In this document: positions 16,292 through 17,188 of the stretch, piece after piece
Layout: each line of letters starts with the position of its first letter
How positions within the stretch are numbered: position 1 is the stretch's first letter
Assembly: GCF_003334255.1 (NCBI RefSeq)
Contig: NZ_QOWU01000023.1
Strand: one strand, 5' to 3'
DNA length: 64,000 bases
Source: Escherichia coli
GTDB taxonomy: Bacteria > Pseudomonadota > Gammaproteobacteria > Enterobacterales > Enterobacteriaceae
Notes under the pieces: generated by a model
What the model was told of the DNA's origin: nothing
Seen by the model: the letters and a program-made list of their open reading frames with translations, nothing else
The model's database searches: none
Program-made: the position numbers and the translations under genes

Positions 16292-17188
16292 ATGCCACTT
16301 CTCAATGATCTGCTCGATTTCAGTGACCATCCGCTTATGCCTCCGCCCTCTGCACAACTATTTGCAGAACACCTTCCCACCGAGTGGATACAACACTGCC
16401 TGACGCTTTCTGCTCATGCGACCGTTCGCCGCCGTCGTTTACCGGGGGACATGGTTATCTGGATGGTGGTGCAATGAGCCAATTACCGATGTTGTTCGCC
16501 GTCTGAACCTGAGCGCGGATGGCGAAGCGGGGATGAACCTGCTGGCCCGCAGCGCTGTCACCCAGGCGCGTCAGCGCGTGGGGGCCGCCCCAGTGGAATG
16601 GCTCTTCCGCCAGACCGCACAGACAGGGGCGCGGAACGTTACCTGAAGGATGACTGGCACGGCCTGCAACTTTTTGCCATTGATGGCGCACAGTTCAGGA
16701 CACCTGATAAACCCGAGCTGCGTGAATATTATGGGTCTGCCAACACATCCACTAAGCGGCAGAACGCCTACCCGGTTATGCGTCTGGTGGCCTTAATGAA
16801 CCTGGGAAGTCACATTCTGCTGAATGCCGTGACCGCACCTTACCGGCAGAGCGAAACTGTGCTGGCCCACTCCATGCTCGCCACCATCCCGGATAACTCT
16901 ATTACGTTGTTTGATAAACTTTTTTACAGCGAAGACCTGCTGCTGACGCTGAACCAGAAGGGTTGTAACCGCCACTGGCTACTGCCTGCGTGGAAGAATA
17001 TCGCATCAGAAATGATAGAGCTGGGAAACACGGCGTCACCAGGGACCATCCCGAAACGACTGGAGCATCTTCGGGGTGCTCTGGAAGTGGTGTTCATAAC
17101 AAAACGCCCCCGACCATCAAGGCCGAGGTCGGTTAAGATATCAAAAACCCGTTATCCTGTGAAACATAGTGCCGCTCCTCTTAAGTGA
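16292..17188 (+). pseudogene. insZ: Degenerate IS4-family transposase remnant (insZ-like), split over three frames
   Basis: Track ORFs 16292..16477, 16416..16646 and 16598..17188 overlap in different frames; recognised as transposase-like from memory of the K-12 annotation. Confidence 0.65.

Follow-up and report, generated by a model that had tools for sequence, protein, structure and literature searches.

A stretch of 64,000 nucleotides of the Escherichia coli chromosome (the window) contains a 989 bp insertion sequence, insZ (ISZ′), which is in all likelihood a defective copy of an element of the IS4 subgroup that inserted into the hairpin of the adhE terminator and was then inactivated by deletions. 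The genes are arranged in the order adhE (13493–16168, + strand), the remnant, tdk (17470–18087, − strand), hns (18692–19105, + strand), galU and rssB. These coordinates uphold the placement between adhE and tdk given in an earlier note on this DNA; of the two neighbours named there, adhE does adjoin the remnant, but the upstream region of hns does not, since tdk intervenes. The element shows 100% identity to the copy in K-12 MG1655, and the literature places insZ (ISZ′, formerly ychG) between tdk and adhE. The feature is the known K-12 pseudogene, an ordinary one that had been annotated before; RefSeq labels the same 897 bp as an 'IS4 family transposase, frameshifted' pseudogene. As an annotated pseudogene of the best-studied bacterium its identity matters little, and wider interest is confined to the apparent terminator-targeting and terminator-carrying design of the subgroup and to the double strike on one hairpin. 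The features of the locus are as follows.

16195–16208, + strand: left half of the adhE intrinsic terminator, as split by the insertion, including the left copy of CCCTTCTGGG (16199–16208) and preceded by AAA at 16192–16194.
16209–17197, + strand (the same direction as adhE): whole defective insertion sequence ISZ′/insZ, 989 bp, from alignments to an empty-site strain and to an intact 1433 bp relative.
16209–16226, + strand: left terminal inverted repeat, CAATGCCGATCAGTTAAG, with the same sequence as the intact relative at that end (empty-site alignment and repeat search).
16218–16252, + strand: first hairpin inside the left end, with a 5′ arm that overlaps the inverted repeat (RNA fold).
16261–16291, + strand: the element's own terminator, with a 10 bp stem and a 6 nt loop (16261–16286) followed by TTCTT (terminator scan and fold).
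16292–17188, + strand: transposase pseudogene insZ (three open reading frames, profile matches and RefSeq).
16470–16471 (junction), + strand: 17 bp deletion (GCCATGGCCTTTTTCCG in the intact relative), the first frameshift (pairwise alignment).
16625–16626 (junction), + strand: 1 bp deletion, the second frameshift (pairwise alignment).
16847–16848 (junction), + strand: 3 bp deletion, in frame (pairwise alignment).
16998–16999 (junction), + strand: 423 bp deletion, in frame, between two 14 bp direct repeats, TATCGCGRCAGAAA.
17180–17197, + strand: right terminal inverted repeat, CTTAAGTGAACGGCATTG, again with the same sequence as in the intact relative.
17198–17219, + strand: right copy of CCCTTCTGGG (17198–17207), then the remaining, right half of the adhE terminator with the T-run (17214–17219) (empty-site alignment and repeat search).

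Three open reading frames of 61, 76 and 196 residues are present on the + strand (16292–16477, 16416–16646 and 16598–17188, respectively), in three frames and overlapping, as had been described. They match the NCBIfam profile NF033592 (IS4 family transposase) colinearly at positions 1–36, 28–91 and 99–234 of 332, with E-values in that order of 0.018, 2.7e-07 and 2.9e-23, far past chance. The translated search against transposase families therefore returned significant similarity, and together with the RefSeq annotation the colinear matches bear out the reading of the three frames as one IS4-family transposase gene broken by frameshifts. The frameshift-corrected translation matches Pfam Nterm_IS4 (3e-26) and only positions 2–116 of 200 of DDE_Tnp_1. 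Since profile coverage is partial and the reading frame is broken, the gene is both frameshifted and truncated. The first two aspartates of the DDE triad would be encoded at 16682–16684 and 16913–16915; the catalytic glutamate is missing.

The boundaries of the element (16209–17197) are exact by alignment to the empty-site strain (locus L002). The earlier note had seen no obvious flanking inverted repeats, but a search of the flanks located both (16209–16226 and 17180–17197), together with a perfect target duplication. The two 18 bp repeats match at 16 of 18 positions and were returned by the repeat search as an inverted pair with arms 16186–16226 and 17180–17220; immediately outside them, the exact 10 bp direct repeat CCCTTCTGGG at 16199–16208 and 17198–17207 is the target-site duplication. 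The empty-site allele is the native adhE terminator, AAACGGCCCCTTCTGGGGCCGTATTTTTT, which folds as an 8 bp stem with a 4 nt loop, and the insertion point lies in the loop of this hairpin (AAA-CGGCCCC-TTCT-GGGGCCG-TA-TTTTTT). The insertion parts the adhE terminator stem from its T-run, and the terminator scan reports a terminator-like site at 17197–17209, followed by a tail.

An intact relative is found on plasmid pUSDA5905_2 (locus L005, 1501–2933). It is 1433 bp long, with 92% DNA identity to the window copy, and encodes a 446-residue transposase (WP_001130324.1) that contains complete Pfam domains and scores 259 bits on NF033592 (cut-off 115). The four deletions account exactly for the difference in length (17 + 1 + 3 + 423 = 444 = 1433 − 989), and the pairwise alignment fixes the two frameshifts at 16470/16471 and 16625/16626. 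The 423 bp deletion takes out approximately residues 244–384, including Y312-R315-E319-K326 (the YREK motif with the catalytic glutamate), and repair of the frameshifts would therefore not restore enzyme activity. The earlier statement that the element is not active holds, given the two frameshifts and the missing catalytic glutamate. The word 'decayed' holds for the deletions, but decay at the level of substitutions is modest: the window copy differs from the intact relative by 56 substitutions, 33 of them at third codon positions, with 35 synonymous, 21 non-synonymous and no nonsense changes. From the synonymous excess and the lack of nonsense changes it follows that most of the divergence is older than the inactivation and that later decay was mainly by deletion. 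Alleles of other strains at the adhE–tdk site have all four lesions in common, plus an extra 4 bp duplication; judged by sequence comparison, the common lesions point to one ancestral insertion and decay history.

Assignment to the subgroup follows De Palmenaer et al. (2008; PMC2266710), who define the IS4 family by a single-ORF DDE transposase with the motif Y-(2)-R-(3)-E-(6)-K. The motif is found in the intact relative as Y312-R315-E319-K326, while the window copy retains its N-terminal domain and the beginning of the DDE domain, with YREK within the 423 bp deletion. For the IS4 subgroup the same authors give an end signature of -AATR--------WTW----, a target duplication of 10–13 bp and a length of 1400–1650 bp (PMC2266710). 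The end CAATGCCGATCAGTTAAGG has AATG at positions 2–5 and T-T-A at positions 14–16; the duplication is 10 bp here, 10–11 bp in other copies and 12 bp for IS4 at the same site; and the intact relative measures 1433 bp, the window copy being reduced to 989 bp through its four deletions. Ends of the IS231 subgroup begin with CAT in the pattern CAT-------AA--TAA (PMC2266710). The window ends begin with CAATG and fit the IS4-subgroup pattern, so that of the 'IS4/IS231' label used previously the IS4 part is retained and IS231 is ruled out. An isoform of IS4 itself is likewise ruled out, as isoforms diverge by less than 2% in amino-acid sequence (PMC2266710) and the transposase is 39% identical to InsG; a megablast search with IS4 as the query did not cover the window element. 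An autonomous insertion sequence is ruled out by the two frameshifts and the lost catalytic glutamate. The element is a defective copy of a 1433 bp insertion sequence that belongs to the IS4 subgroup within the IS4 family and is distinct from IS4.

Occupancy of the site was surveyed in 5426 complete E. coli genomes, and the counts are approximate. ISZ′ in its adhE–tdk context is present in about 1933 of the 5426 genomes; an empty site with an uninterrupted terminator is present in about 2164, including O157:H7 and B-type strains; and in about 1138 the same adhE hairpin is occupied by true IS4 in deleted form. The description of the remnant as fixed does not survive these numbers, which reveal a presence/absence polymorphism and make the adhE–tdk locus a natural system of three alleles (empty, ISZ′ or IS4). 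The IS4 copy is 98% identical to insG, with a 281 bp internal deletion and frameshifts, and has perfect TAATGCCAGTCAGTTAAG ends and a 12 bp duplication. As the two transposases are just 39% identical, the hairpin has been struck twice independently. The two copies of the 12 bp duplication in this allele are not alike (left, CCCCATAAGGGG, L004 2862–2873; right, CCCCTTCTGGGG, 4019–4030), with the loop differing at three of four bases; an empty allele with an ATAA loop, sought as the source of the odd left copy, was not found among the inspected alleles. Two further arrangements of the spacer were encountered: strain d1-58 has unrelated sequence from ∼18 bp past the adhE stop codon (L017, about 2540–2640), and NCTC9064 contains an IS200C transposase.

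The polymorphism could also be read in the opposite direction, with the filled state ancestral, the empty sites arising by precise excision and the remnant older than the polymorphism suggests. The 10 bp direct repeats could in principle mediate such a precise deletion, but very many empty-allele genomes have a perfect, functional-looking terminator, and the IS4 insertion in this hairpin, which has a 12 bp duplication of its own, needs an unoccupied site; we regard this history as very improbable and favour insertion into an originally empty adhE terminator. The polymorphism may persist because the insertion is selectively nearly neutral.

The left end of the element is highly structured. RNA folding of 16185–16300, with two strong left-end hairpins, gives −45.4 kcal/mol (z = −6.1), and the second of the listed structures, the element's own terminator, stops 1 nt before the transposase ATG (16292). 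A hairpin and T-run directly before the ATG recur in every one of 46 left ends aligned from this element and its relatives (44 once duplicates are removed); the stem sequences vary yet remain complementary, and the energies lie between −9 and −21 kcal/mol. These folds were calculated for each sequence separately, because the RNAalifold consensus was poor owing to the two element types being 1–2 columns out of register. An Rfam scan of 15500–19200 gave a sole match, of ctRNA_p42d to the terminator hairpin (33 bits against a threshold of 50), which was rejected as a generic hairpin resemblance. By eye, a candidate sigma-70 promoter, outward-facing or the element's own, can be picked out in the left end (TTGACC at 16233–16238 and TATAAC at 16258–16263); its 19 bp spacer is beyond the range of the promoter scanner and its transcripts would begin inside the terminator hairpin.

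Term-seq data for MG1655 report a dominant 3′ end at 1295324(−) under three growth conditions, with 51,499 to 100,225 reads (PMC7815308, supplementary file 1). With coordinates converted as 1311614 minus the MG1655 coordinate, which was checked against hns, this end falls at window position 16290, within the U-tract, and the flank given in that file is identical to window 16240–16300. The entries of the file that cover this locus classify the end as 'orphan' (PMC7815308), and among them no further 3′ end lies between 16290 and the adhE coding region. The segment 16261–16291 thus has a GC-rich stem-loop, a UUCUU tail and, according to these entries, an in vivo 3′ end at 16290, as expected of an intrinsic terminator; its independence of Rho is predicted. 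By position and abundance, the adhE mRNA of K-12 most likely ends at this terminator of the element, 122 nt downstream of the stop codon. K-12 and about one third of E. coli genomes would then have an adhE transcript with ∼80 nt of IS-derived 3′ UTR and an IS-borne rather than a native terminator, which is relevant to engineering or quantifying adhE expression and to comparing adhE between K-12 and B or O157 strains. On the other side of the spacer, the same data place a 3′ end of tdk at 1294198(+), window 17416, just past a hairpin at 17443–17424 (PMC7815308). Chromatin immunoprecipitation has recorded a heat-shock-dependent association of sigma-32 'between tdk and ychG', a non-canonical target (PMC3738151) that corresponds to the window spacer 17198–17469.

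A rival reading is domestication for a host function, either of one of the open reading frames as a truncated DNA-binding protein or of the element as a selected terminator or 3′ UTR module for adhE. The dominant 3′ end in the Term-seq entries maps to the element's terminator, conservation of ISZ′ exceeds 99% across about 1875 records and there are more synonymous than non-synonymous differences (35 to 21), all of which speak for a retained fragment. However, about 40% of genomes use the native terminator, which makes the element dispensable; divergence of functional IS lineages before the insertion accounts for the synonymous excess; more disruptive indels build up in some lineages; and none of the three reading frames covers a complete domain. 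Domestication is consequently unlikely in the extreme, and we continue with ISZ′ as an inactivated insertion.

Related ends occur elsewhere in several forms. A solo left end of ∼86 bp of an ISZ-type element, 92–93% identical, lies downstream of a MacB/TolC-type efflux operon (L014, 2501–2586; L015, 2501–2587) and is found on more than 400 plasmids, mostly conjugative, of E. coli, Salmonella and Klebsiella; at this efflux-operon site pEC31-1 carries a copy that is frameshifted but almost of full length (L006, 2001–3404), and UTI89 has a similar solo end near dsdC. O157:H7-type strains carry a second decayed ISZ-type copy, 93–94% identical and frameshifted (L003, 4001–4747), which adjoins a truncated sialate O-acetylesterase gene downstream of nanC–nanM; its right inverted repeat is present, and a left repeat was looked for in this copy and not found. 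In Yersinia pestis NCTC5923 a miniature element of ∼53 bp is nothing more than a left and a right inverted repeat placed back to back, CAATGCCGATCAGTTAAGGATC...GATCCTTAACTGATCGGCATTG. Sequence spanning the segment deleted in the window is present in about 163 of the 5426 genomes, on chromosomes and plasmids, in full-length or nearly full-length copies that include several pseudogenes.

That the window copy is itself a still-mobilisable, MITE-like non-autonomous element, moved in trans by the intact transposase of some strains, is a very improbable reading: over the terminal 18–20 bp its inverted repeats do not differ from those of the intact relative and the deleted segment survives in the genomes just counted, but every inspected 989–993 bp copy of the deleted form lies at adhE–tdk with no second locus found among the 5426 genomes, the lone 'plasmid' match is a chromosomal adhE–tdk–hns–galU fragment, and transposases of the IS4 family, among them those of IS10 and IS50, act preferentially in cis.

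Elements of the WP_001130324.1 type are also present downstream of gnd and silE, and the five other copies of the same element examined here, downstream of gnd and silE and on plasmids, lie at hairpin or terminator sites. Insertion is in the loop of the hairpin CCCCCAGC-TAG-GCTGGGGG in the copy downstream of gnd, of GCCCCC-GTCA-GGGGGC, followed by T6, in the copy downstream of silE and of CCCGC-TTC-GCGGG in a plasmid copy. Of six complete elements with exact duplications, five are in textbook terminators with an A-run, stem-loop and T-run. For a broader survey the 20 bp end AATGCCGATCAGTTAAGGAT was scanned in one genome per species, which gave 120 loci, most of them in Gammaproteobacteria of many genera and a few in other phyla. 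Among the latter, rumen MAGs of Kiritimatiellae (L070–L073 and L112) have the 20 bp end with different internal sequence and an assembly named 'Chryseobacterium sp.' (L127) has the end together with a left end of ISZ type; such occurrences could reflect horizontal transfer, binning error or contamination. A 241 bp scaffold of 'Corynebacterium striatum ATCC 6940' (L047) is identical to the E. coli adhE/ISZ′ junction and a 265 bp contig of 'Methylobacterium mesophilicum NBRC 15688' (L085) has the same flank as the left junction of K-12 IS4 (insG); by their sequences both look like E. coli contamination.

The 113 unique left flanks share a composition, with A at −19 to −17 in ∼80%, a GC-rich stretch from −15 to −9, an A/T-rich stretch from −8 to −5 and a G-rich stretch from −4 to −1. 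With 4997 random positions at these loci as controls, an A-run is present in 63% of left flanks against 2.6% of controls, a hairpin of at least 3 bp ending at the insertion point in 68% against 18.5%, and both together in 45% against 0.5% (Fisher p = 1e-70); from these values, ∼72% of A-run-bearing flanks have the hairpin, compared with ∼20% for controls. A crude open-reading-frame test of orientation relative to the upstream gene gave 61 versus 24, where ∼59% would be expected by chance. The enrichment for hairpin targets could in part reflect the survival of harmless insertions rather than a preference of the transposase. The target of IS4 itself was reportedly described by Mayaux et al. in 1984 with the consensus AAA-N20-TTT, with which the pattern of the flanks is in agreement. 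By direct count, this spacing fits both the adhE site and the K-12 insG site; the latter has AAA-N20-TTT but no hairpin.

In the preferred account, cut-and-paste insertion into the loop of the adhE terminator hairpin duplicated 10 bp, and transposase function was then lost through the 17 bp and 1 bp frameshifting deletions and the 423 bp deletion between the 14 bp direct repeats; both ends have outlasted the decay, yet the copy encodes no transposase. The choice of site may reflect a preference of the transposase for the A-run/GC-hairpin/T-run arrangement, and the element's terminator would normally shield the transposase gene from read-through. Extending this to the subgroup, we lean, by a narrow margin, towards regarding the IS4-subgroup elements as 'terminator swappers', which pick bidirectional terminators with an A-run, GC-hairpin and T-run, cut symmetrically about the hairpin centre and carry inside their left end a replacement terminator that also insulates the transposase gene. 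If so, the working adhE terminator of K-12 is IS-derived and stands at a hairpin hit independently by two transposases of 39% identity. The three-allele locus and the survey of 113 flanks offer a handle on how IS4-type elements choose terminator-like targets.

Among known systems, insZ/ISZ′ of MG1655 is the same object as the window element, with no difference; its annotation there is 'frameshifted' alone and does not include the inverted repeats, the target duplication, the 423 bp deletion or the terminator context. The intact relative encoding WP_001130324.1 has the ends and left-end structures of the window element but, unlike it, is of full length with a whole 446-residue reading frame including YREK. 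IS4 (insG) has the same architecture of Nterm_IS4 and DDE_Tnp_1 with YREK (seen for ISZ′ in the intact relative), a nearly identical terminal 20 bp, a hairpin and T-run directly before the ATG, a target duplication of 10–13 bp and A-run/T-run target arms; the two differ in that their transposases are 39% identical, the end of ISZ′ begins with C instead of T and the stem sequence of the internal terminator is not the same. Palindromic extragenic targets are also used by IS1397 and ISKpn1, which insert into REP/BIME sequences, and by IS110-family elements, which insert into REP sequences. These elements resemble ISZ′ in taking intergenic stem-loops as targets, which limits damage to the host. 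They belong to other transposase families with other mechanisms, whereas ISZ′ is of the DDE IS4 type and makes a duplication of about one helical turn centred on the hairpin.
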